UHGV virus genome: UHGV-1457062
Origin: a virus
Reading direction: 5' to 3' (one strand)
DNA: 46,041 nucleotides
Every line of letters starts with the position of its first letter. The stretch's first letter is position 1. Made by a program: the position numbers and the translations under genes. The notes beneath the pieces were generated by a model. The model saw nothing but the letters and a program-made list of their open reading frames with translations, did not search any database and was not told the DNA's origin. This document shows, in pieces, positions 10,306-23,453 of this stretch.

Positions 10306-10962
10306 TTATTTCACTTCTCCGTCATACGTCGGAAGGGTGTCTTTAGTGGTGCTGGCTGTTCCTGCATTGGTTGGCACTTGGCTTTTTACCTGTCCGCCTG
10401 TGCTCTTAGGTGATGCGGTCTTTACAGCAATAGCGTTAGTAGTTGCATAACTCACTAATCTTATCTGTTCGAACTGCAAATCAAACTGTAAAGCTGATTC
10501 TGTTTTATATTCGTAGTCAATGCCTGTCAGAATCATATTATCAAACGTCTTATGCTCTGTGCTTACAATAATAGGCTGTCTGGCATTCATTATTTCATCA
10601 AGATAAGCAATAGCCTGTGAACACCTGTTACCGTTCACCCCTGCACTTGATAGCATATCACCACGTAATGCTAATGGTGTTTCTGTAATAATGCCTGAAA
10701 GCATAAGTTTATTATTCTTGATCCTGACATTATCAGATACATCATTACCATCCTGCACAGGATACGATGTAACATCGGCAGAACGTGAAACCTTAGTTGC
10801 CGGAACAGCGTCAAAAGTAATAGCTTTATAACTGGCTATCGTTGATGCATTCTCGTTATTCAGGTTGCTACATATAATGGCAAATCCGTTATCAGATTTA
10901 ACCTTGCTGTTAGATGTATTAATGTTAGATGTGCTGTTGATCTGACTTTCTTTGATAGCCAT
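10306..10962 (-). CDS. hypothetical protein (218 aa), Ser/Thr/Asn-rich
   Basis: Long ORF last in a co-directional block; no recognised motif. Confidence 0.55.
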   Translation of the reverse strand: MAIKESQINSTSNINTSNSKVKSDNGFAIICSNLNNENASTIASYKAITFDAVPATKVSRSADVTSYPVQDGNDVSDNVRIKNNKLMLSGIITETPLALRGDMLSSAGVNGNRCSQAIAYLDEIMNARQPIIVSTEHKTFDNMILTGIDYEYKTESALQFDLQFEQIRLVSYATTNAIAVKTASPKSTGGQVKSQVPTNAGTASTTKDTLPTYDGEVK

Positions 10963-11035
10963 TTATATTAATCCTTGTGTAATGAGCGGAAAGCAATAAA
11001 TATTGCCCCCGCTTTATTATTAGTTATCGTTAAAC

Positions 11036-12937
11036 TTAGTTAACGCTACTCTGTCCTGACAACGTGCTAAGAATCAGATTCGAACTAAACTGATTGTTGT
11101 TCGCTCTGATCTCAGTGCGGATTAAATCCTGAAAGCCGGGACCGTTAGGGATGACGTTAACAGAGATCATATCACTCGGCACCGTAACCTGTGCATTCAC
11201 GTTAACAGGGGTTGCGTATTGACGTTGTAGGCTTACAGTCGGCTGATAGGCTTCTGCTTTACGTGCAACAAGGGTTGATCCGTAGCTGTTAGCATTGCCA
11301 TTAATTAAATCAGTCCACCACCCTGGAACGCCGGACTGTGTTTCCTCACCGCGCACAATACGCCCTACATCTTTCGTATCGAGTCCAGTTGCATAACGAA
11401 TACCTTCATTGATAATCGTTGATGGCGACCATTCCCCATCTGTAACAGCGTCCATAACCTTTTGTGTCTCAGGTCGGTTATCATTCTCACCACGGCTAAG
11501 ATGTTTATTAATCCAGCTTGTGATTTGATTCCCGTAAGAAGTCATAGAGGTCAGTAATATAGCGCCTTGTTTAGCCAAATCCCCGAACGATGCACCAACA
11601 CCATAAGCTGCATTCTGTAAGGCTTTGCTTTCTTCCGGTTTGAGTGCTGGCATGTTGGCTATGCCATCAAAGAAGCCCAAAATAGCCTGATTCGATAGTC
11701 CATCTGTCAGACGGTCAAAGGCTGTAGCTGTCTTGTTAGCTGCGCGATATTGCTCTTTCTGTGCTTCTGTCAGTAGCTGCCCGTTGTTTTCCATATCAAC
11801 CATCGTTTTACGGAACTCTTCCCCATCACGGGAAAACATCTTGAGATAATGGCTGGCATCGTCTGCTAATGGTTCGATCAGGGATATGATGGCTTCTTTA
11901 GTCATTCCTCGGCGTTCACCTTCTCTCACCACGTCTTGCAAGAGTTGCAGCGGTCGCCCCTGGTAGGAAGCTATCTTATCTTTGTTCCATGCAAAGGCAT
12001 TCTGAATATCATTTAATGATCCTTCCCCGCCTCGCCACTCTTTTTTCTTACTATCCCATTCAGCAGTTCGGCTTTGATGACCAATGCGTTCGTTTAAGTC
12101 TTTGATATTATCAGTGGTCTTGTCCGCGCTTGCACTTGATACACCGTTTGCCCTCCCCCAATTAACCATTGCAGCCACCTGATTGCTATCGGCACCTACC
12201 AGATCGCTCATCTTCTGCAATTCCATACGTTCACGGGCTTTTTCCATTCCAGCGGATACAGCCATACTTCCTAAGCCAACGGCAGCGCCGCCGATAATGC
12301 CACCAACACCGCCCATCATTAACGCGCCACCGCCGCTAACACCTTCTTTGTGGAGCTTCTTAGAAGTAACTGGATATACCCCCCCAGCGGCAGCATTACG
12401 ACGCGTAGCAGCGGCTGCGGCTCGTCTTTCTAATGTGATGCGGTCACGGATCAGGGCATTCATCTTCGCTTGCGATATAGCGCCGGATTCATAGAGGCGG
12501 GTTTGTTCCTTAATGTAACGTAGAGCATCGTGATATTTCTTAATATCCATCCCTTCGCCATAGCGGGAATTGTTCTTGATGCCTTGTAACTGGCGATATG
12601 ATGCAAGGCGCTTGATCTCTGCCTTTTCAGCAATTGAGGCTCGTTTAGCCTGTGCTTTAGCGAGGTTTTTAGCTTCCTGTAGCTTCTGTTTAGTGCTGGC
12701 TTTAGATGCCTGTGTCTCAGATTTAACAGCCTGCTTAACATGCTGATCATGCTGGCGCTGAATCTCTTTTCCCAGCCTCTGTAAATCTTTCTGACGTGCT
12801 GCCGCCACTTGCACAGGTTTGATCCCCTGCATCTTCTTTTGTAGCTTATCCACTTCATTCTTAGCTTTCTGTAAGCTCTTGAAATCAGTGGTAAATGTCA
12901 CAACATTACTAATTCGTGAGGCGCTAATTTCTAACAT
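11036..12937 (-). CDS. hypothetical 633-aa protein: basic coiled-coil N-terminus, Gly-zipper hydrophobic segment, large C-terminal domain (tape-measure/pilot-like architecture)
   Basis: Heptad-like K/Q/A-rich N-terminus, GGALMMGGVGGIIGGAAVGLGSMAVSAG segment, no P-loop or catalytic motif recognised. Confidence 0.7.
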   Translation of the reverse strand: MLEISASRISNVVTFTTDFKSLQKAKNEVDKLQKKMQGIKPVQVAAARQKDLQRLGKEIQRQHDQHVKQAVKSETQASKASTKQKLQEAKNLAKAQAKRASIAEKAEIKRLASYRQLQGIKNNSRYGEGMDIKKYHDALRYIKEQTRLYESGAISQAKMNALIRDRITLERRAAAAATRRNAAAGGVYPVTSKKLHKEGVSGGGALMMGGVGGIIGGAAVGLGSMAVSAGMEKARERMELQKMSDLVGADSNQVAAMVNWGRANGVSSASADKTTDNIKDLNERIGHQSRTAEWDSKKKEWRGGEGSLNDIQNAFAWNKDKIASYQGRPLQLLQDVVREGERRGMTKEAIISLIEPLADDASHYLKMFSRDGEEFRKTMVDMENNGQLLTEAQKEQYRAANKTATAFDRLTDGLSNQAILGFFDGIANMPALKPEESKALQNAAYGVGASFGDLAKQGAILLTSMTSYGNQITSWINKHLSRGENDNRPETQKVMDAVTDGEWSPSTIINEGIRYATGLDTKDVGRIVRGEETQSGVPGWWTDLINGNANSYGSTLVARKAEAYQPTVSLQRQYATPVNVNAQVTVPSDMISVNVIPNGPGFQDLIRTEIRANNNQFSSNLILSTLSGQSSVN

Positions 12938-12971
12938 GCTAATTGTTTCCCTGTATTATGATTGTTGTTTG

Positions 12972-13169
12972 TTATTGTTTTTTAGAACAGTAGTATGTAA
13001 TTGCTTCAAAAGTGCTGCACCCAGTCTGAAACACACGCTGCCGCACATTATTTGCATCAATTGAAAGCATTCTGCATAAGGCACTGACATTGATTATTGA
13101 GTCATCGCTAATAGCTGCCAGTTCTTTTACAGACTTAAGAATTAATGCCTGTGAATTTTCTGTGTTCAT
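12972..13169 (-). CDS. hypothetical small protein (65 aa)
   Basis: Short ORF in the gap between the 343-aa and 633-aa genes, same strand. Confidence 0.3.
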   Translation of the reverse strand: MNTENSQALILKSVKELAAISDDSIINVSALCRMLSIDANNVRQRVFQTGCSTFEAITYYCSKKQ

Positions 13170-13322
13170 TGGTTTTCTCTCACATATATATTTTTATTTG
13201 GGTTTGTAGACAGTAGAAAAACAAAAAAGGCAAAGAGATTCGTTACTGTATTTGCGCCTACAGGTTAGGTAATCCCTTTACCCTTATTTTCCAGACGATG
13301 GGAATCGTCTATTAATGCTTTA

Positions 13323-14354
13323 TTACGCAGCAGATCCGAAGATGATAGCTTGCGGAATGTTGTTTACTGGCAGATAAGATGTCTCAGTAACCACAGATGG
13401 GAATTGGAATTCATCCTTGATTAGATATTGGTGATGCAACACGGCATCTTGACCTAACTCAGCATGACGCACACCAACGCCTGTGTGAAGCTGGTAACAC
13501 TGTACCGATTTATCCATTACCGGGACAATTGCGAAACCGTTCTCTCCGATGTGAGCAACAATCTCAGGAAACATTGACACATCAATAACAGTGATCCCAC
13601 CAATCTGGAAAGAGTCATAGGCTGGGTTAGAATCAACCATACGGGTAAACAGGGCCGTAGCACTCGCATCACCTGCATATTTCACCATGTCACTGATCAG
13701 CGGGTTAGATGACAAACCATCAGCAGCAGCGCCAGCAGCAAAGATAATTACACCAGTTCGCTTTGCAGCAAGACCAGACCCCAGCTTTTCACTCTGTAAG
13801 CGCACCGCTTTACGAATAGCAAGGAACGGGTTAACAGTAGTCGATGCAAAGTCGATAGCGGGTACCGTGGTTTTAGCCTGACCGTCGAGGAAGTCGAGAT
13901 CACCTTGTCCGGCATATTCAGATTCAACTTTCAGTCCCAGCAGCGCGGTAATCAGATCCACTTCAACACGGTTTGCGTGTGAACGGTAATGAGCCTCAGA
14001 GAAATCATTAACCGCTACCAGCATAGCATCAGAACGGTTTGGATATTGGCGGCTGTATTGTTCCAGGTCACGAGAAGTAACAGCGTTAATACTGCCGACG
14101 TGTTTCATCTGGAAAAGTTTGTTTGACCATTCCTGACGTTTAGAGGCGTTCCAGTCGCTTTGAGCGTAAGGCGAGGTTTCCCCAGCTACCTGCACAAACT
14201 GATCGATCAGGTCGGTAAGAAGAATGCTGTTTTCTGTATGATATTGCACATCGAACAGATCGAGATTAGTAATCAGGGTATTAAGTGCATTCTCATAAGC
14301 AAAAGGAGTTACTACCGCAGTATTAACGCCAAAATATGTTGATAAATCATTCAT
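13323..14354 (-). CDS. hypothetical protein (343 aa)
   Basis: Long ORF in co-directional block; no nucleotide-binding motif; function unknown (structural role is only a guess). Confidence 0.65.
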   Translation of the reverse strand: MNDLSTYFGVNTAVVTPFAYENALNTLITNLDLFDVQYHTENSILLTDLIDQFVQVAGETSPYAQSDWNASKRQEWSNKLFQMKHVGSINAVTSRDLEQYSRQYPNRSDAMLVAVNDFSEAHYRSHANRVEVDLITALLGLKVESEYAGQGDLDFLDGQAKTTVPAIDFASTTVNPFLAIRKAVRLQSEKLGSGLAAKRTGVIIFAAGAAADGLSSNPLISDMVKYAGDASATALFTRMVDSNPAYDSFQIGGITVIDVSMFPEIVAHIGENGFAIVPVMDKSVQCYQLHTGVGVRHAELGQDAVLHHQYLIKDEFQFPSVVTETSYLPVNNIPQAIIFGSAA

Positions 14355-14368
14355 TATTATTTTCCTTG

Positions 14369-14752
14369 TTAAGTCGTAGGGATCGCAAGTTCTTCATAAC
14401 CAGCAATTACAAAGCCGAGAGATTGCAGTTTTGCAATAACACTTGCCTTTTCCATGCTGTTAAATTCAATCCCATCTTCAGCCAGAATAACGAAAGTAGG
14501 ATGTGCAACCACTACGCTTTCCTGTCCTTCATAAGCCGGTTCAACTACTACGTGAGCAATATCAGATGCAGTTGTTGCTTTGGTGCCATCGGCTTTCAGC
14601 AAAGCCCCGACAATAAGATCGTCAGTGAGAGGTGAAGCCAGTTTGACGAGGCGATCTTGCAGCACTGGATCAGCAGCGTAAGCTACTACCTTACAGCGTG
14701 AACGGGAATTATCCGCATTCACTGCTTTTAATTTTCCATATGGGTTAGCCAT
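14369..14752 (-). CDS. hypothetical protein (127 aa)
   Basis: ORF 15 bp upstream of the 343-aa gene, same strand. Confidence 0.55.
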   Translation of the reverse strand: MANPYGKLKAVNADNSRSRCKVVAYAADPVLQDRLVKLASPLTDDLIVGALLKADGTKATTASDIAHVVVEPAYEGQESVVVAHPTFVILAEDGIEFNSMEKASVIAKLQSLGFVIAGYEELAIPTT

Positions 14753-14756
14753 AAGA

Positions 14757-14954
14757 TTATTTTCCTTTCAGTTGTTTAATTTTAGATTTAAGGGCATCAG
14801 CAAGACTAACCGCATCAGCCGATTTAAATAATTGGGCAGTGGTAGAACGAAGACTTTCGGGAGTAACTCCCAACAGTGCGGCAACCTTAATGAGGTTTTC
14901 ATCACTAACAATCATCGTTTCCCCGTCTTTGCTGATAATCATTTCTTGTTTCAT
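14757..14954 (-). CDS. hypothetical small protein (65 aa), basic C-terminus
   Basis: ORF track 14757-14996; internal ATG at 14954 (MKQEMIISKDG...) has an AGGAA RBS. Confidence 0.45.
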   Translation of the reverse strand: MKQEMIISKDGETMIVSDENLIKVAALLGVTPESLRSTTAQLFKSADAVSLADALKSKIKQLKGK

Positions 14955-15135
14955 AAATAACGTTCCTGTTAGTGCCAGACAAATAAAAAGCCCCAATGCC
15001 GTAAGAGGTTAATTCTGACCAGCAAAGGGGCTTTAACGTGCGGGCAATTACATAATTGATAAGTTAAACTATAAGAGGATTAAACATATCAGCAAATACA
15101 CTTTTTAAATATACTTGATGATATGCTTAAAGGAT

Positions 15136-15200
15136 GAATATCAGATCTTAGAAGGAAGGCTCTTAGGAGTTGCCCCTGGAATCACTAAGATCTGATATTC
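15136..15200. repeat. perfect 16-bp inverted repeat (gaatatcagatcttag / ctaagatctgatattc) with 33-bp spacer
   Basis: Read directly from sequence inside a ~950-bp ORF-free gap (15000-15948). Confidence 0.8.
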
Positions 15201-15948
15201 TGGATGCGGTGGCTAACCGCTGCCTGTTTTTGCTGTGGATGCAACAAAGTAAGGCTTTAAGGAATCACTATTCCAATTCTCATCTACTCACAGATTAAAT
15301 TTTAATAGGATTAACTACACCAACAATAATCTACCGTTTCAGAAAAAGCGTTTTTACAACCAAAGATTATAGATTTGCAGTCTATAAAACCCGTTTTGCT
15401 ATCAATATTTCCAAAGGTTATTGCACAATTCTTAGCTAAACTCTCTCTGCTTGCGGCTAACGCTATGCAGATGATTGTTTTTGACAACAACTTAATAGAT
15501 TATTCTGTTACTAACTTCCGTCATTAAATAAGAGTTTAATGATGTTAGTAAATAGTTATAAAATATAACTATCAGTGTAAGGCTCTTTAATGTTTTCGGA
15601 CAAAATAAGGAGCTTTAGGATAAGCATAGATGAAAAATAAAAGCGGGAAGGGCAAGGAGATAACACCTACCCGCTTTTATCAAAATTAAGCACAATGCCT
15701 AACAACATTCATCAACACAACGTAGAAACAATCAACAATCAAAGAGGGAGTTATGATTATTCTAAAACTTCTTGAGGGGATGGAAGGTAATATTTGTTAG
15801 AGGTTAATGCCACTCAACCTTTGAGGCTATCACCTTCCATATGCAGGGATTTATGACAGTAGAAGGATTAACACCAGTCAAAACCTTTTTATCTATCCCT
15901 AATATTATTATATAATGAAATCGTTATAAATGCAAATAATTTTCATTA

Positions 15949-16257
15949 TCATTTAGAGAAAATAGCACTTTTTGCTAAATCATCTACTAATTGCTGAATC
16001 TCTTCACTTGCAGCCTTTAACGTGCTGGCGGTGTCTGTGATGGTTTGAGTGCACATCTTGGCATCGTCCTCAATTAGCTCTAAATCGCTCACCAGAGAGA
16101 TAAAATCGTCAAGGCTTACATTCACCTTCATTAAGCTAATAACGCATTGAGAGAGCGTGTAATCGCATAAATCTGAATAGGCTTGATTTATTCTTGTTTG
16201 TAGTGAGATAGTCAGATCTAAAAGTTGTTCCATTGCATTGCTAATATCTTCTTCCAT
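15949..16257 (-). CDS. hypothetical acidic protein (102 aa), translationally coupled to rep
   Basis: Start ATG overlaps rep stop (TAATG); about 22% Asp+Glu. Confidence 0.55.
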   Translation of the reverse strand: MEEDISNAMEQLLDLTISLQTRINQAYSDLCDYTLSQCVISLMKVNVSLDDFISLVSDLELIEDDAKMCTQTITDTASTLKAASEEIQQLVDDLAKSAIFSK

Positions 16258-16817
16258 TATGCGGCTTCTCCTTGTAATGCATCATTAATCATATTCAATA
16301 CGATGTTAAAAGGTGTCTTGAGCGTCAGCACTTCATCACGATAACGCTCTAATGCTTCGTAGTCTTCTGTTTCTTCGTGCGGTGGTTTCTTCTTATCAAG
16401 GGAAAGAAGCCAAGTAAAAATTTCGGGCCGCTCAGGGAACTCTGATTCCTGTATTTCTTCTTCAACGATGATTTCTGAAACATTCAATATTTCATTAGAT
16501 TCGTTTTCTTTCTCAGAAGGATCAGGTAGTGATGATTCTCCTTTTGGAATATCAAGCACTCGATAAAGGTTAGAGCTTCCTGGTCGTGCATCTTTTATAA
16601 TTAATCCCATTTCGAGCAATTTCTTAACCCTTTCTTCTGCTGCTCTTGGTGTTATGCCAAAAACATCGCCTATCTTAGCGTAAGAGGGAAATGCACGATC
16701 AAACCCTCTCAAATAGCAGTAAAGGTTTTTAGCACTATCTGTAAATTTATGCCCGTTTACTTGGCTTATTTTTAGAATCCACATAGGAACTTTTACAAAT
16801 TGTTCTTCATTAATCAT
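16257..16817 (-). CDS. putative replication initiator (winged-helix Rep-like)
   Basis: ORF track 16257-16841 (GTG); ATG at 16817 with AAGGAGA RBS; HTH-like region ...KIGDVFGITPRAAEERVKKLLEMGLI...; iterons nearby. Confidence 0.5.
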   Translation of the reverse strand: MINEEQFVKVPMWILKISQVNGHKFTDSAKNLYCYLRGFDRAFPSYAKIGDVFGITPRAAEERVKKLLEMGLIIKDARPGSSNLYRVLDIPKGESSLPDPSEKENESNEILNVSEIIVEEEIQESEFPERPEIFTWLLSLDKKKPPHEETEDYEALERYRDEVLTLKTPFNIVLNMINDALQGEAA

Positions 16818-16870
16818 TAAAAATCTCCTTGATGTAATCACGCTCTACGGCGCTACTATGGTGATAAAAA

Positions 16871-17041
16871 TCACTTGCTTTTGTTTGAGAGTGTTTCAGC
16901 CTCTCTTTTCAACATATCAAGAATGTAATCTGTAACAGTGATACGTTTACTTCTGGCTTCTTTAAACAACACCTGAAATACTTCATCAGGAATATGAAAG
17001 CAAGTGCGTGGTTGTCTTTTCTTTTCTGTAGTTTCGCTCAT
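16871..17041 (-). CDS. ribbon-helix-helix (Arc/CopG-like) small regulator, 56 aa
   Basis: Manually translated MSETTEKKRQPRTCFHIPDEVFQVLFKEARSKRITVTDYILDMLKREAETLSNKSK; strong AGAAGGAG RBS; below the ORF-track size cut-off. Confidence 0.45.
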   Translation of the reverse strand: MSETTEKKRQPRTCFHIPDEVFQVLFKEARSKRITVTDYILDMLKREAETLSNKSK

Positions 17042-17062
17042 AGTTTTCTCCTTCTCCTGTTA

Positions 17063-17245
17063 TTATTCTTTCTCTGCTTCTGCCTTACGCAGTTCATCAA
17101 TAATTTTTAGTGCGTCGTCAAAGCATTTTTCACGCTCTGGGTAGCCACGGCGACGGGCTGTATTACGATTCTGGCGAACCTGGTAGCGGGTCATCTCACC
17201 AGCGAGATACGCAGAAACAATGTCATTTGGTGTAAACCATTTCAT
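17063..17245 (-). CDS. hypothetical small basic protein (60 aa)
   Basis: ORF at head of the RHH-rep operon. Confidence 0.4.
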   Translation of the reverse strand: MKWFTPNDIVSAYLAGEMTRYQVRQNRNTARRRGYPEREKCFDDALKIIDELRKAEAEKE

Positions 17246-17859
17246 TTTTGTAATTCCTTATTCAAATAAAAGAAAAACACACCTTGCAGCCTGACGGCTC
17301 AAAGTGCAGTGTATTGTGATTTGATTATTTAGATGGGGGAGATGCTTTTCTTACCCCTCACATTTACTTTACTACATATGGAGGCTTTTGTCAACCCCCT
17401 TTCATAAAAAATACGATCTTTTTCAATTTCTTATAATTTTTCTTATCTTTTTGTGCTATCTTATCTGGTACAATTCTCCACTATTGTCTAAAACGCTCTC
17501 AATCGCATTCTGACGAGGTTTTGATAAAAACAAGACATTCCCTTATGTAGAGGCTATTTATCTCGTCAGAGGCTTGTTTAAGGGGCTTATTTTGTATTTG
17601 TTAGATGATGGAAAGATGATGATAGATAAACTCTGATTTCAAACACCTTATAAAATACCTGCAAAGCTCTCAGAAGCTCTATAACGAGCTAATCTATTAC
17701 CGCTAAGTGTTTCCCTACCTTATATACGTTTAGCTCGCCTACGGCTTGATTTAAGCGGTAGAAACTTATTTAACCTTCAACTACTAAAACCATTCTTTCT
17801 TTTTTGTTTGTTGTTGGTTGTTGTCTGTGTGCTAACATCGCTAACGCGTAGCACACAAG

Positions 17860-18240
17860 GTTATTGCACTCGTCAGAGTATTGCACAATAGATTTTCTCT
17901 TAAATAGATTGATGATCGTTAGATTGGCGTAAGCCTCATCAATGGAACTATTGAAGCGCACAGCGCATAGACACTAACAACCATTCGCTTACGCTCAGGT
18001 TATTGCACAAGTAAATTTCAATCGTTAGATGGTAGTTAGTTAATTATCGTTCTGCGCACAGCGCAAGACTATTTAGCCTTACGCAAGCCGTAGGCTATTT
18101 GCACATAGTAGATTACATATTCGTTGTGAGCGGCATTAGCGAACATAGATCTACTAACTAACATCAACAAACAAAAAACTATGTGTTATGACAAGCAGTC
18201 TAACGACTAACACTCTAACTTGTGCAAGGTTCTGGCGAAT
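17860..18240. repeat. degenerate direct repeats (recurring TTATTGCACA, ATCGTTAGAT, GCGCACAGCGCA, CTTACGC motifs)
   Basis: Motif sets recur 2-3 times in the same order within the ORF-poor region 17250-19000. Confidence 0.5.
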
Positions 18241-18359
18241 GCCAATAGATTAAGGGATAGTCGAAGACTCCCTAACGGGTATCCCTTAATTATTCTTTAA
18301 AGATAAAAGAATTTATAAAAGATAATTTAATTGTAGTTTGATAGTTGATCTAATAGGTA

Positions 18360-18500
18360 ACAAAATTCTGTAGGGGTGGCTAACAGTTTTCTGTGGGGGT
18401 GTCTAACATAATTCTGTTAGGGTTGGGGTAACAGTTTTCTGTTAGGGTGCATATTTCTTTAAAAGTTAAGGATAACAGAATTCTGTGGGGGTAGTTCACA
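18360..18500. promoter_or_regulatory. iteron array (5 x ~22-bp TTCTGTnGGGGT-type repeats), candidate replication origin
   Basis: aattctgtaggggtggctaac / agttttctgtgggggtgtctaac / aattctgttagggttggggtaac / agttttctgttagggtg / aattctgtgggggtagttcac in tandem. Confidence 0.6.
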
Positions 18501-19010
18501 GTGACCTACCGTTACATCCATTTATCACATAACATCTGTGCAATGATCTTCTAAAAGTGTTTCTTGCTACCAAAATTAAACATCTAAAACAGGCTTAAAT
18601 TCAATGTAATTGATGATTAATCCCTGTGTAATTCCTACGTAAAAATTCAATGAAAAGTAGCTTAAAAGTGCAATGTTAGCTTTCTTCACTTTTACATCAC
18701 TTTCGCTGTGCCTTGTGTAATGCGGCATATAGCGCATCACTGCAAAATTGTTGCTCAATAAACGTTCTATCATTTGTCGAACAAGTTTCTTTAATGCAAC
18801 AAAAAATTATTTTTTCAAAATAAACACACTATTTAATAGCTTGCTAATTTTACCAAAACGTAACTACATGATTCTCATGCAAGACGTGTAGTGATAAAGC
18901 AGGCTAAATCACCACACTAAAAACCTTCGAATTTCGTAGTGAAAAAAGTCCTTTACACACCTAATCAACACGATCAATAATCACTACACACAAATCAACA
19001 CAGAAGGAAA

Positions 19011-19568
19011 ATGAAAATGGCTAATATTGGATACATTAGGGTATCGACTGTCCAACAAAACACAGACCGTCAATTAGCTGGAGTAACTCTTGATAAAGTC
19101 TTTGAAGATAAAGCGTCAGGCAAGAATACCCAGCGCCCACAGTTTGAGGCAATGATGAACTATGTGCGTGAAGGTGATGTTTTGCATGTTCACAGCATTG
19201 ATCGACTTTGCCGTAATACAGCCGACCTACTGGCAACGGTTGAGCAATTAACAGAGCGCGGCGTGTCTGTGCATTTCCATAAAGAAGACTTTAAGACAGG
19301 GAAGAACTCTCCCGCAGGGAATATGATGCTCACAGTGCTTGCAGCAGTGGCACAAATGGAACGTGAAATGATGCTTGAGCGGCAGCGTGAGGGGATCGCC
19401 GCAGCTAAGGCCGCTGGACGTATAGCAAAACGTGGTAATGGAAAAGCAATTGATCGAGCGGGAATTGTTGCCGCTCTCGCGAATGGTGGATCAATTCGGA
19501 GCGTAGCAAAAGATTTCAGTGTCAGCACACAGACGGTGCAACGTATCAAGAAAGAGCAGGAAGCGTAA
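19011..19568 (+). CDS. serine recombinase (resolvase/invertase family)
   Basis: N-terminal IGYIRVSTVQQNTDRQ catalytic motif, C-terminal HTH; about 185 aa; alternative start at 19017. Confidence 0.85.
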   Translation: MKMANIGYIRVSTVQQNTDRQLAGVTLDKVFEDKASGKNTQRPQFEAMMNYVREGDVLHVHSIDRLCRNTADLLATVEQLTERGVSVHFHKEDFKTGKNSPAGNMMLTVLAAVAQMEREMMLERQREGIAAAKAAGRIAKRGNGKAIDRAGIVAALANGGSIRSVAKDFSVSTQTVQRIKKEQEA

Positions 19569-19908
19569 TGCCTCCTGATATTTGAGAATTGTCGCTGCGT
19601 GGACCTGACGCCGCTGATCTTCGCGTTAAACATTGATCACGTCTGCGCCGATTTCAGAGAAAAAGACAGTAACTGAACTCACTATGAAGGCTAAACGTAT
19701 CTTTACACTTGATGAAAACGTTCAAAAAACAACCTAACCCCAAAATTCAACAAATTGCAACACATTGTTTTTAAAAGAAAATTAAATCTACATCAAATAT
19801 TGGTTGACGTAGATTGAGGTGAATAGTAGACTATTAGGGTAAATTACCACCCTTGTAACATCATTTAATGCATGTTCTAATCTTCCTATCGTAAAACCGG
19901 AGGAAGTT

Positions 19909-20067
19909 ATGCATTTACTTTCAAAACATCTTCACACTATTCACTTTCTCGTTATTGATGTATTCGTTGTGGCTATTAGTTACCGCATTTGCATCGCTTC
20001 CAGTGAAGAGATGGACGCTGTTGCAATTATTGCTCAAGCAATGGCGATGTTAACTAAACGACTTTAA
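19909..20067 (+). CDS. hypothetical 52-aa hydrophobic peptide
   Basis: Manually found ORF with GGAGGAAG RBS and upstream TTGACG/TAGACT promoter-like hexamers; single predicted TM helix. Confidence 0.25.
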   Translation: MHLLSKHLHTIHFLVIDVFVVAISYRICIASSEEMDAVAIIAQAMAMLTKRL

Positions 20068-20888
20068 TAATTTCACTATCAGGTGCATAAACACATCTTT
20101 GATCGCTGGATGTGTTATGCGCCTACTGGTGATTCAATCCTTAAGCCATTTCAACTCACTAAGGAGTTTTCTTTCTTCGTTCTCTCGCTGTTTACGCTCT
20201 AGCCAGGCTTTTCCTTCTGGCGTAGACAGGAACTTACGAGCGTGAATCTTGCGGTTATTACGTTTGATAGCTGCAATGTTTTTCATCGTGTGCCTCTGTA
20301 TTCATATGAAAATTAACAAGTTACATACTACACAGGAAGGCTACGCATAAAACACAATACAAGTAAAGATACATTTTCAAGACAATAGGAGCCATAAAGC
20401 GCCTTTGATGGTTATACCAAAAAATAAGCGCCGTAGGCGTATCCACTAAAAAGGGCTTTTTCACAAAAGCTATGAAGTCTTAGCAGTTCTTCTCTTATCA
20501 GGCACCCGTTGTACTCCGGTGGACGAAACCGTGCTAGAGCTTGATTCTTTCCCGATCAAGTTAGGTTTTGAAGAGGTGGGCTTTAATCCACTATGCACTT
20601 AAAACTCTTCCCATCATTTAGCCTGTTTATCCTCTGCAACGTCTCACGACGTGTAGCATCATTGGACACCGCGCCAGGTGTGGAACATCTTGCTAAGAGT
20701 TTTGGTAGAAGGTTTAGAGACGGTGGCACGTCTTCCAGCTTCAAAGGAACTTGTTACGAGGTTGAGCCTGTGAACTACTCGCCCATACGTGTTACACTAC
20801 CAAAGCCCATAACAACGTATAGGCGTTTGTAAGTGATAACAGAAGATACAATTTCTTAGAGAAGTTAAGCTAAGTTATTGATTTTCTT

Positions 20889-20936
20889 AATGGTGCCGAT
20901 AATAGGAGTCGAACCTACGACCTTCGCATTACGAAT
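20889..20936 (-). repeat. 46-48-nt copy of thrW tRNA-Thr(CGU) 3' portion (anticodon loop to CCA); P22-type att core, not a complete tRNA
   Basis: Reverse complement reads ATTCGTAATGCGAAGGTCGTAGGTTCGACTCCTATTATCGGCACCA; 5' half of the tRNA absent (sequence diverges at 20937). Confidence 0.7.
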
Positions 20937-21146
20937 CTGTAGCACCAATCATAACTATCTGTTTTAGCAAGCATTAACCGCATTCACTAACCTATAGTTG
21001 ATGGCACAAACAGAAAGTTGATGCATGATGTTGCCATGTGTATGTCACAAATACGGCACAACAATCTTCAAACATGTAGCCACCAGAATAGCACAACGCC
21101 TTGTGTACCATAGTTTTTCCACATCAACTACCGCAAGTATCGATAG

Positions 21147-21332
21147 ATGGAGGCTTGGATGTTAAACTTCATGACTTTGATTACTTGGTTGCATCACGAA
21201 ACTATTGAAGTGCAACTGGCACATGCCAACGGCGGATCTGTGCGCGGTATTTACAACCATGCTCAGTATCTCGATAAGCGCAGGGAGATGATGCAGTGGT
21301 GGGCGGACTGGATTGATGAAAAGGTGGAGTAA
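21147..21332 (+). pseudogene. C-terminal fragment of a P4-type integrase
   Basis: ...VQLAHANGGSVRGIYNHAQYLDKRREMMQWWADWIDEKVE matches the conserved P4-type C-terminus; no upstream catalytic domain. Confidence 0.6.
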
Positions 21333-21464
21333 TCCACCTTAACTATCGAATGGCATAAAGCCTTGCAATCCAGCGCAAAGCTTATATGCCACAGTTTTTG
21401 TTGCCACGCCATTCATATAGGTAAGTGACACAGAATGTGCCTAGATATACTGTGATATATAAAT

Positions 21465-23453
21465 TTACTTTCCAAGTAACTCCTCTATTTTCTCAATACG
21501 CATAGCTAACTCTTTTTGTTTCTCCAACAAACGAGAGTAGTTACGTCGTTGTAATGCAGCCTCGAGAGACAATGCCTCCTCATAACGAATTCCGTATCTT
21601 TCACCAGCTGGTGTATCAAGAACCTTTTTAAATTTTGCAGGGGCAGGTTCAGTATATTCTTCTGTATTTCCACCGCTCGTTTCTCTTGTTTTTTTTACCA
21701 CCTCCCCTATATTTGTCTGCACATCAACGTAAACGTCATCCCATGAGTCATAACATAGCAAGCCAAGCTTAAATCCATCTATTCCATGTGATGAAAAAAC
21801 TTTTTCAACACGCTGCGCAATCAGTCCAAAGTGCCATCTCGCACCATCTTCTCCTTTTATCGCTATTGCGTCATCAAATTTAAACCATGTCCCCCAGTCT
21901 ACTTCTGACCACGCGTCAAGAATATATTCTGGTATTTTTTCTTTGATGGGTTTATGGCGAGAGTCAGATGTATTAATTGACCCGGTACCAAAATACGCTG
22001 TTCTTCCTCTTTTGGAAGCTGTTCCATAATCATAGGTGTTGTCAAGAGATGGTCTAATGCCAGACCCCATGACTATTTCTGTTTTTGAGTTAAGTTGAAT
22101 GATTGAAGAATTAAATCCAATAGTCCCATCACCAGAATCTTCAGAACCACCAGAACAGAAAATCCTTCCATCGTTATCAACATTATTTCCGCTTGAGTGA
22201 AAGTCAATATATGAAACACCGGAATCTGTTGTACTACCAAGTTCAATAGATGAGCCAACAGATGCGATATTCAATTTACTATTTTGTAAAGTAACGTCAC
22301 CTGACATCAATATCATTGATGAGCATTTTGGTATCTCGAATCCTGATGTTATGGATGGCACATCTGTAAATGCAACAAGTATTTTACTATCTCCTGCTAG
22401 GGCGTGCCCCCCATTCATGTTGCCTATGCGAATAGCGTTTTTCCAGCGAACGGTTGAAGTAGAAAGGTTTGATAAGGCAATACCAGTATCTACAGCAGTA
22501 CCTCGAACATCACCACCACCGACAATCTGAATACCTGATCGATACCATACAGATGAACCTACTAACGCGGAAACATTAAACTCACATCCTGTAACGTTAT
22601 AAACTCCAACCGCAGCAGAATCCAGGCGTCCATACATATTTCCGCCAAAATATGCTCCTTTGAATGTACCAGGTGATGATGATATCGTTCCACCATCACC
22701 ATTTTGTGAAACCGCAAGACCAACAACACCAACATAATTTCTATCAGGATTTTCTAAGTTTGTGGCTGCTTCGTGAGTTAAAACAAACTCTCCGGCGTGT
22801 CTGCCGCCTTTTGCTTCTTGATATCCGAAATTATGGTGAACTAAAAACCCGTCAACTTTTGTTCCTGCCGATTGGTCATCAACAGCATTAATTCTGTCAT
22901 CATTAATCATGATATAGTTTATTTTAGCTGTGCTTGCATTAGGAACAGAACCAACAATTGAATCATTAATAATGATACCAATACCGTATGTAAGACCATC
23001 ATTTAAATACTCTGATGTCCTGCCCTGCATTATTGAAAACTTATCATTACCTCTAGATATAACTCCTGCGCCAACTAATCCGGCACCACCATTAATAGAT
23101 AGTTCGGTTCTTAACTGATCAGGATCATACTTCAGAACATTAGGAAAATAGAACTGCTGCGCCCCATAAGCATCATAAACAGCCATAGAATGGCCTTGCA
23201 CAGTTACGAACTTGGCAATCTGTCCGTTATATACCGGATAACCAGCAGCGTTAATGATGATTGGTTGCGAAACAGGAACGTGAGAGCCGTCTTCGTTCTC
23301 CACATAAACATGAATCTGGTTTTCAGGATTTACCGGGTCAGTGTCAATTTTACCGATATAAATTTTGCCATTGGCAACCGCTTTAAAAGAACGCGCCATA
23401 GTGAAGAGTTGCGAAGGCATGCTTACCACAACATTGGCTGTAATGTCTGTCAT
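21465..23453 (-). CDS. tailspike protein: P22 gp9-type head-binding N-terminus, divergent receptor-binding body, C-terminal S74-type intramolecular chaperone domain
   Basis: [43 protein letters not shown]... matches P22 gp9 N-terminus; C-terminus has [12 protein letters not shown] and [14 protein letters not shown] motifs. Confidence 0.85.

Follow-up and report, generated by a model that had tools for sequence, protein, structure and literature searches.

The stretch of DNA analysed here, the virus genome UHGV-1457062 (46,041 nucleotides, referred to at its full length as the window), corresponds to the Escherichia coli chromosome at the integration hot spot formed by the tRNA-Thr gene thrW. 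From left to right it comprises yagU, the vacuolating autotransporter toxin gene vat (3084-7214) with a MarR-type neighbour, a 12.1-kb element (8791-20914), and a P22-like prophage. We focused on an intact open reading frame (ORF) on the plus strand, 19011-19568, which encodes a small serine recombinase. A first-pass annotation had presented this recombinase as stand-alone, without an adjacent res site. Upon inspection of the surrounding sequence, both descriptions required revision: the recombinase is encoded by the last gene of the 12.1-kb element, which has copies of the thrW 3' end as direct repeats at its two ends, and directly upstream lies a 118-bp res-like cluster of six related 10-bp half-sites (18886-19003), including a 32-bp inverted repeat and ending 13 bp before the start codon. 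The locus very probably represents a resolvase-type gene with its own adjacent res site.

The recombinase matches the Pfam Resolvase family (PF00239; E = 1.1e-38, residues 6-137) and possesses a C-terminal helix-turn-helix (HTH) domain (HTH_23; E = 1.2e-5, residues 146-182). It aligns end to end with Tn3/gamma-delta resolvase (E about 1e-27, with the C-terminal domain aligned to residue 182-184) and with Gin invertase (E about 3e-24), while Sin aligns at E = 1e-18. These alignments bear out the initial assignment to the Tn3-resolvase/invertase family, and provide, for Gin and TnpR, the comparison that had been suggested alongside it. Residues R8 and S10 and the DRLxR motif (here DRLCR) align with R8, S10, R68 and R71 of Tn3/gamma-delta, and Y6, R8, S10, R63, R66, E115 and R116 are invariant in an alignment of 29 family members. 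With a catalytic domain, a C-terminal HTH and a length of 183-185 residues, the protein has all of the features that define small serine recombinases (~180-200 residues).

While the predicted ORF was found to be intact, its true start is probably the ATG at 19017 rather than that at 19011, resulting in a gene of 19017-19568 (+) and a protein of 183 residues. This start is likelier because a ribosome-binding site (AAGGAA, 19004-19009) is correctly spaced for 19017 only, the RefSeq protein at the identical locus of strain D8 (WP_001273869.1) has 183 residues, homologues begin with MANIGY, and the ATG at 19011 is missing from a 99%-identical allele (L011; loci are cited by such labels where they need to be told apart). 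The two alleles differ by 10 synonymous and 1 non-synonymous substitutions, and by this measure the gene is both intact and under constraint. A literature search with three RefSeq protein accessions identified no paper mentioning them, and close relatives of the recombinase were present in no phage record and in only 12 plasmid records. The recombinase belongs to an uncharacterised clade, not close to any studied resolvase, with the nearest solved structures aligning only at E about 1e-27.

Within the upstream cluster, the half-sites can be resolved into three candidate subsites. Site I, the candidate crossover site (18886-18917), is an inverted repeat with 10-12-10 geometry (GTGTAGTGAT-aaagcaggctaa-ATCACCACAC), comprising a forward half-site, GTGTAGTGAT, at 18886-18895 and a reverse half-site, ATCACCACAC, at 18908-18917. 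Its 12-bp spacer contains the core AGC-AG-GCT; based only on this symmetry, the cleavage centre would be the AG dinucleotide at 18901-18902, flanked by AGC and GCT. Candidate accessory site II (18934-18973) consists of inverted half-sites 20 bp apart, tcGTAGTGAa (18934-18943, forward) and ATCAACACga (18964-18973, reverse). Candidate accessory site III (18980-19003) consists of two half-sites that point the same way and whose starts are 14 bp apart: ATCACTACAC at 18980-18989 and ATCAACACAG (ATCAACACag) at 18994-19003, both reverse. We also identified a sigma-70-like promoter for the recombinase gene at 18952-18981 (+; TTTACA, 18-bp spacer, AATAAT; 10 of 12 consensus positions), which sits between, and overlaps, sites II and III. 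A corresponding arrangement (TTTACA ... TATAAT) is found at the equivalent place in a plasmid relative (L008). Since sites II and III enclose the promoter, binding of the resolvase should repress its own gene, as in Tn3.

For the composite site I, the 46-kb window contains a single match, where 0.02 would be expected by chance, and in a position-weight scan it scored 27.8, against 17.8 for the next best match and a shuffle maximum of 23. Allowing up to one mismatch, GTGTAGTGAT has five matches across the window, three of which lie within about 100 bp upstream of the recombinase gene. The repeat count of the cluster (5 copies) is by itself indecisive, being matched in 9 of 612 windows of 150 bp and hence only moderately unusual, such that the case for a res site rests on comparison with other loci.

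For this comparison, we gathered homologues sharing 60-82% identity from publicly available assemblies and genomes. The sequence of the most-repeated upstream 8-mer differs by locus, but its positions recur, comprising a convergent forward/reverse pair 20-22 bp apart near -130 to -150 and further half-sites near -83 (forward) and -55, -38 and -24 (reverse). The 10-12-10 geometry of site I was found at -131 to -157 in 10 loci. Equivalents of site II were identified near -83 and -53 in L008, L018-L021 and L023, and equivalents of the site III pair at -37/-23 in L008 and at -39/-25 in L018-L020. Under a strict automated test, this layout was recovered in 7 of 21 loci and in none of 755 control windows drawn from those loci. 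Because the site II half-sites of the window are degenerate, the window itself was missed by the strict test, and a count anchored on site I was used instead: between site I and the start codon, the 10 loci with a clean site I contain 29 extra half-sites, compared to 1.7 expected from the remainder of the same loci. Automatic selection of the best inverted repeat mis-assigned site I in L002, L014, L016 and L024, which were read by other means, e.g. from footprint alignment A2.

Furthermore, the half-site sequence co-varies with the recognition helix across homologues: the helix VSTQTVQRIKKE is paired with half-sites GTGTAGTGAT / GTGTGGTGAT, VSTNTISRIKKE with TGTAGCGAT, VSTRTVMNIKAE with GTGTTGCAAT, and VAPSTVQRIKKE with TGTATCCATT; specificity groups defined in this way include those labelled GTAGTGAT and GTAGCGAT. 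In alignment A2, which contains five loci sharing the helix of the window, conservation is concentrated on the six half-sites and an AGC-NN-GCT core while the flanks diverge, and the central dinucleotide varies among these same-helix loci (AG, AC, TT). In their sequence behaviour, the half-sites are what would be expected of genuine binding sites for the recombinase. Three features fit this assignment less well: the failure of the window in the strict test, the degeneracy of its left site II half-site (3 of 10 positions mismatched), and variation in the number and orientation of accessory half-sites between specificity groups, with site III being inverted in L012 and L015, for example. As judged from sequence, the locus nevertheless has the composition of an accessory-site resolvase system, i.e. 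a res beside the gene with a crossover repeat and further subsites. It also has the expected single res per replicon, with one composite site in 46 kb and a median of one cassette of res and recombinase gene per E. coli genome.

Given the similarity of small serine resolvases and invertases, we considered whether the recombinase might be a Hin/Gin/Cin/Pin-type invertase that flips a nearby segment to switch expression, for instance of the tail-related genes of the element. An inversion switch had been among the initial suggestions, and there are grounds for it: the protein is of the same superfamily and size as these invertases, its similarity to Gin (E = 3e-24) is nearly that to resolvases (E = 1e-27), its best PHROG family is phrog_125, labelled DNA invertase (2e-62), and the element does carry tail-related genes. 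Invertase genes also adjoin one of their crossover sites, which are simple and 26 bp long. Inversion, however, requires two inverted sites in cis, and the search for crossover sites that had been proposed delivered only half of such a pair. One site I adjoins the gene, while neither the composite search nor the position-weight scan of the 46-kb window detected a second site above the shuffle range, and no two inverted crossover sites flanking a segment near the gene were found. A single site-I-like sequence in 46 kb fits a resolvase, with one res per replicon, and speaks against an invertase. Where invertases rely on a remote enhancer, bound by Fis and usually situated in the 5' part of the invertase gene, the locus has four extra half-sites close by, a hallmark of accessory-site control in resolvases. 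The tail-related genes are 6-8 kb away, and the plasmids carrying relatives of the recombinase, at about 2-5.8 kb, are too small for a switch. Finally, no orientation variants were observed: 89 complete E. coli genomes cover a 3.6-kb region to 80% or more, and in each of them it occupies a single place on the same strand and is thus colinear. We regard an invertase role as highly improbable.

The nearest strong inverted repeat reported in the first-pass annotation, at 15136-15200, is real. Its 16-nt arms (GAATATCAGATCTTAG / CTAAGATCTGATATTC), 33 nt apart, are 100% complementary, and it is intergenic and upstream of the structural operon of the element. It was rejected as a partner site, being without the half-site motif and 3.8 kb away.

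Comparison to characterised systems places the locus closest to Tn3/gamma-delta. Shared features include the size and domain order of the protein (~183-185 residues, catalytic domain N-terminal, HTH C-terminal), a res of about 114-118 bp that immediately precedes the gene, its division into three subsites of dimer size, of which the crossover site is the most distant from the gene, a promoter within the accessory sites, and half-sites with an outer TGT. The distance between the centres of sites I and II is also similar, at about 52 bp here and about 53 bp in Tn3. Differences were likewise evident. Unlike in Tn3/gamma-delta, the dinucleotide at the centre of site I is not palindromic and differs from element to element (AG, AC, TT), and the linker reads GRIAKRGNGK rather than GRRR/GRKR. 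The Tn3 res is 114 bp long, with sites of 28, 34 and 25 bp binding three dimers (PMC2602789), compared to 30-32 bp for site I and 40 bp for site II here. Site III consists of two half-sites in the same orientation rather than an inverted pair, and the recombinase would probably act on multimers of an integrative element or plasmid rather than on a transposition cointegrate.

The classical layout, with res directly upstream, three dimer sites and an embedded promoter, could also be read as the tnpR/res remnant of a decayed Tn3-family transposon with no present role, a transposon relic having likewise been proposed at the outset. Contrary to this, neither a transposase nor remnants of one were found among the ORFs of the element or the neighbours of the homologues examined, terminal repeats not having been specifically searched. 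The gene is intact and evolving under constraint (10 synonymous vs 1 non-synonymous differences), and its similarity to Tn3/gamma-delta TnpR is only moderate (E about 1e-27). In addition, elements of a tRNA-integrated family share the cassette at one and the same position, and small plasmids carry it too; this recurrence indicates a part of the backbone rather than an insertion. A relic is thus very unlikely.

The same-orientation half-sites of site III find a parallel in Sin of staphylococcal plasmids, which like the beta recombinase is a small serine resolvase serving multimer resolution; the accessory site II of Sin is built from half-sites in the same orientation, i.e. direct repeats (PMC2428073). 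Sin, however, acts on an 86-bp res with two Sin dimer sites and a site for the bending proteins HU/IHF, whereas the res of the window comprises six half-sites, enough for three dimers, and yielded no site for a bending protein. The window protein is also more distant from Sin than from Tn3 resolvase. In terms of its sequence, this res would be a variation on known themes, its three-dimer layout resembling Tn3 and its same-orientation accessory site resembling Sin. A functional analogue is Cre/loxP of the phage P1 plasmid prophage, in which a phage-related replicon uses a dedicated recombinase for turning dimers into monomers; the analogy does not extend to mechanism or ancestry, Cre being a tyrosine recombinase of unrelated sequence that acts on a simple 34-bp site without accessory sites.

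Among the roles initially considered for the recombinase, multimer resolution is the one we favour, given a multi-subsite res-like site upstream with a layout that is conserved in diverged homologues. It is through accessory sites that resolvases act selectively on direct repeats of their site within a single supercoiled molecule (PMC9943657). The element encodes a Rep-like winged-helix protein of 194 residues (16257-16841, minus strand; phrog_270, 9.6e-9, with the O-like families phrog_678/8540/391, and a weak Pfam HTH_36 match). The iteron region that had been noted near the recombinase was recovered as five copies of about 23-24 bp at 18355-18493, a putative replication origin of the element, and L023 has different iterons at the equivalent position. 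Given the Rep-like gene and the iterons, an excised, replicating form of the thrW element is plausible. We also observed four copies of AGGTTATTGCACAA-like 14-mers (15415-15428, 17858-17888 and 17997-18010), in the non-coding stretch between the Rep-like gene and the iterons, which may be a second set of protein-binding sites. A conserved module of origin plus res was considered and dropped, since iterons beside res were not found in the small plasmids.

Relatives with 64-71% identity are encoded by small plasmids. Complete circular plasmids from PLSDB include two of 5.5-5.8 kb and three of about 2 kb, and draft contigs with terminal overlaps imply circles of 4.66 kb (L008/L009), about 4.8 kb (L024) and about 5.3 kb (L033). 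The only obvious job for a resolvase on such plasmids is keeping them monomeric. In the ~2-kb circular plasmids of E. coli and Salmonella (L091, i.e. NZ_AP027492.1, of 1952 bp; NZ_CP130129.1; NZ_CP116175.1), the sole annotated gene encodes a recombinase sharing 68-69% identity with that of the window, and a Rep gene is lacking; GAGTAACCC-type repeats lie upstream of the recombinase gene, and by eye one strand is poor in T. Also identified was a circular 7.77-kb contig from a Motiliproteus metagenome-assembled genome (L064; 77-bp terminal overlap) with an integrase, a 50%-identical recombinase and a full signal recognition particle RNA gene, which may be the excised form of an element integrating at ffs.

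We propose, with moderate confidence in the explanation as a whole, that the recombinase and its res form a self-contained, self-repressing cassette that resolves multimers of the excised, replicating 12.1-kb element. Episomal replication from the iteron origin would give rise to a head-to-tail dimer of the element. Recombinase dimers would bind site I (18886-18917), site II (18934-18973) and site III (18980-19003) of each res, and the two res copies would synapse via their accessory sites on supercoiled DNA. The four subunits at the two copies of site I would then cut at the AG dinucleotide (18901-18902) through Ser10, with strand exchange by subunit rotation and religation yielding monomers, while resolvase occupying sites II and III, which enclose the promoter, would repress its own gene. 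We infer binding, cleavage position, topological selectivity, autoregulation and the replicating episomal phase.

A different use of the same sites might be fusion and separation between the chromosomal element and small plasmids of the same specificity, or the protein might function chiefly as a DNA-binding repressor. The recombinase of the 4.66-kb Salmonella plasmid has a nearly identical C-terminal DNA-binding region and near-identical half-sites (GTGTGGTGAT), with a more diverged catalytic domain, as might be expected under fusion; further points in favour of these readings are the promoter embedded in the res subsites and the ~2-kb plasmids carrying only such a recombinase and no Rep gene. 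On the other hand, the central dinucleotides of the window (AG) and L008 (TT) differ, and by established serine-recombinase chemistry mismatched central dinucleotides would block productive exchange. Cointegrate junctions were not seen, and accessory-site resolvases strongly disfavour intermolecular recombination (PMC9943657). These alternatives appear unlikely.

Beyond its sites, the recombinase gene appears to be part of an exchangeable unit. Besides the res and the gene for the recombinase, the cassette (18793-19633, plus strand, 0.84 kb) takes in a terminator-like hairpin (19557-19577). In E. coli AR436 (L174), unrelated DNA stands in for precisely the stretch 18793-19633, between flanks that are 92-98% identical, and an unrelated 183-residue gene takes its place (L174 3783-5273). 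In Escherichia sp. E1V33 (L023 6050-6580), a cassette of different specificity has been swapped in: identity is 98-100% for the small genes on either side but only 63% for the recombinase, and the half-sites are not the same. On the left, the breakpoints of these swaps cluster near 18793-18813; on the right, one lies at about 19533 and the other at about 19634. Of 5426 complete E. coli genomes, 314 (about 6%) carry the cassette, almost always once, and about 14% have matches to parts of the surrounding backbone region.

Several of these distributions count against multimer resolution of an episomal element. Among complete E. coli genomes, 333 of 334 cassette places are chromosomal, and as unrelated DNA has replaced the cassette in the sister element of AR436, chromosomal carriage does not require it. 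Nor would there be an obvious need for monomerisation were the element to spread as a packaged satellite. In L175, a related element of 12.4 kb that has the integrase, capsid, tape-measure, p56 and p60 genes in common with the window element, a 186-residue tyrosine recombinase and a Dam methylase occupy the region of the serine resolvase (L175 1707-3670). This is a further weakness of the proposed role; it may be a non-orthologous replacement of the resolution function, and fits a functionally equivalent replacement without proving one. The circularity of L175 was not used as evidence of an episome, as its 30-bp terminal overlap is a tRNA 3' end and may be an att repeat collapsed by the assembler.

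The element in which the cassette resides is delimited by a left attachment repeat at 8791-8816, a copy of the thrW 3' end with 24 of 26 positions identical to 20889-20914, and a right attachment repeat at 20889-20936, a partial 3' end of the tRNA-Thr gene thrW of which 20889-20914 forms the direct repeat. Homology to other E. coli genomes stops at window position 20936, the point at which those genomes have tRNA-Thr and then proA; in other strains, the 12.1-kb element directly adjoins thrW-proA, and no complete tRNA was found in the window. From about 20937 to 46041, the P22-like (Lederbergvirus-type) prophage lies in tandem at the same thrW site, with a tailspike of 662 residues (21465-23453) and, at about 20870-21400, integrase/attP remnants matching HK75/HK446-type phages. 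A thrW island of about 20 kb has been described in a review of extraintestinal pathogenic and avian pathogenic E. coli (ExPEC/APEC) strains. An Rfam scan of 8000-21500 at a permissive threshold returned only a chance snoRNA match and nothing to account for the long non-coding flanks, and a PADLOC scan of the proteins of the element identified no match to a defence system. From the gene layout, we take the vat island together with the 12.1-kb element to be such a thrW island.

At the left end, the element encodes a tyrosine integrase (8867-10231, plus strand; Pfam Phage_integrase, 3e-17, with DUF6538 and a SAM-like domain; tyrosine-type recombinase/integrase in RefSeq), followed by phage-structural cargo on the minus strand (10306-14752), with a match to phrog_16051 at 1e-71. 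This cargo, all in the same orientation, comprises a Dit-like protein (10306-10962; Pfam Dit_like, 5e-28), a tape-measure homologue (11036-12937; phi92 gp134, E = 1.3e-48) that is about 33% identical to its counterparts in phAPEC8/phi92-type myophages, a lambda-E-type major capsid homologue of 343 residues (13323-14354), and a 127-residue protein that is possibly a decoration/cement protein (14369-14752). The capsid identity was assigned because homologues sharing 42-49% identity with the 343-residue protein contain PF03864 and are annotated as major capsid protein E; a tblastn search with the protein against phage genomes gave no match. The structural genes follow the same relative order as gp123-124 and gp134-135 of phi92. 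Neither portal nor terminase was found in the 12.1-kb element. In a further locus (L004 1-1490), a large serine integrase (547 residues) stands in place of the tyrosine integrase, with the order of Dit-like, tape-measure, Rep-like and small-resolvase genes being kept.

Together, this gene content gives the 12.1-kb element the appearance of a phage satellite, perhaps of phi92/phAPEC8-type myophages. In the literature searched, neither satellites of phi92/phAPEC8-type phages nor a phage-inducible chromosomal island (PICI) at thrW have been described. It is a tentative and rather doubtful extension of this view that the cassette serves as the plasmid-maintenance module of an undescribed family of ~12-kb, tRNA-integrating, satellite-like elements that alternate between chromosomal, plasmid-like and packaged states, with resolution private to each lineage. 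Such a family would be characterised by its own lambda-E-type capsid and a phi92/phAPEC8-type tape measure, here also with a Dit-like protein, and by the lack of portal and terminase genes. If this were true, element-specific half-sites and a non-palindromic central dinucleotide (AG, AC, TT) would provide a private resolution system per lineage, which would explain the swapping of the cassette as a unit between near-identical elements.

For annotation, these results suggest that the recombinase be described as a resolvase with a mapped candidate res rather than as a potential switch for phase variation adjoining the vat toxin island. The series of co-varying recognition helices and half-sites could help in understanding or engineering DNA recognition by small serine recombinases. 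Furthermore, the cassette marks a replicon-like backbone within the 12-kb element. As a lead rather than an established finding, the host element is a more unusual object than the resolvase itself, its capsid and tape-measure homologues making it a candidate new phage satellite within a known pathogenicity-island locus.

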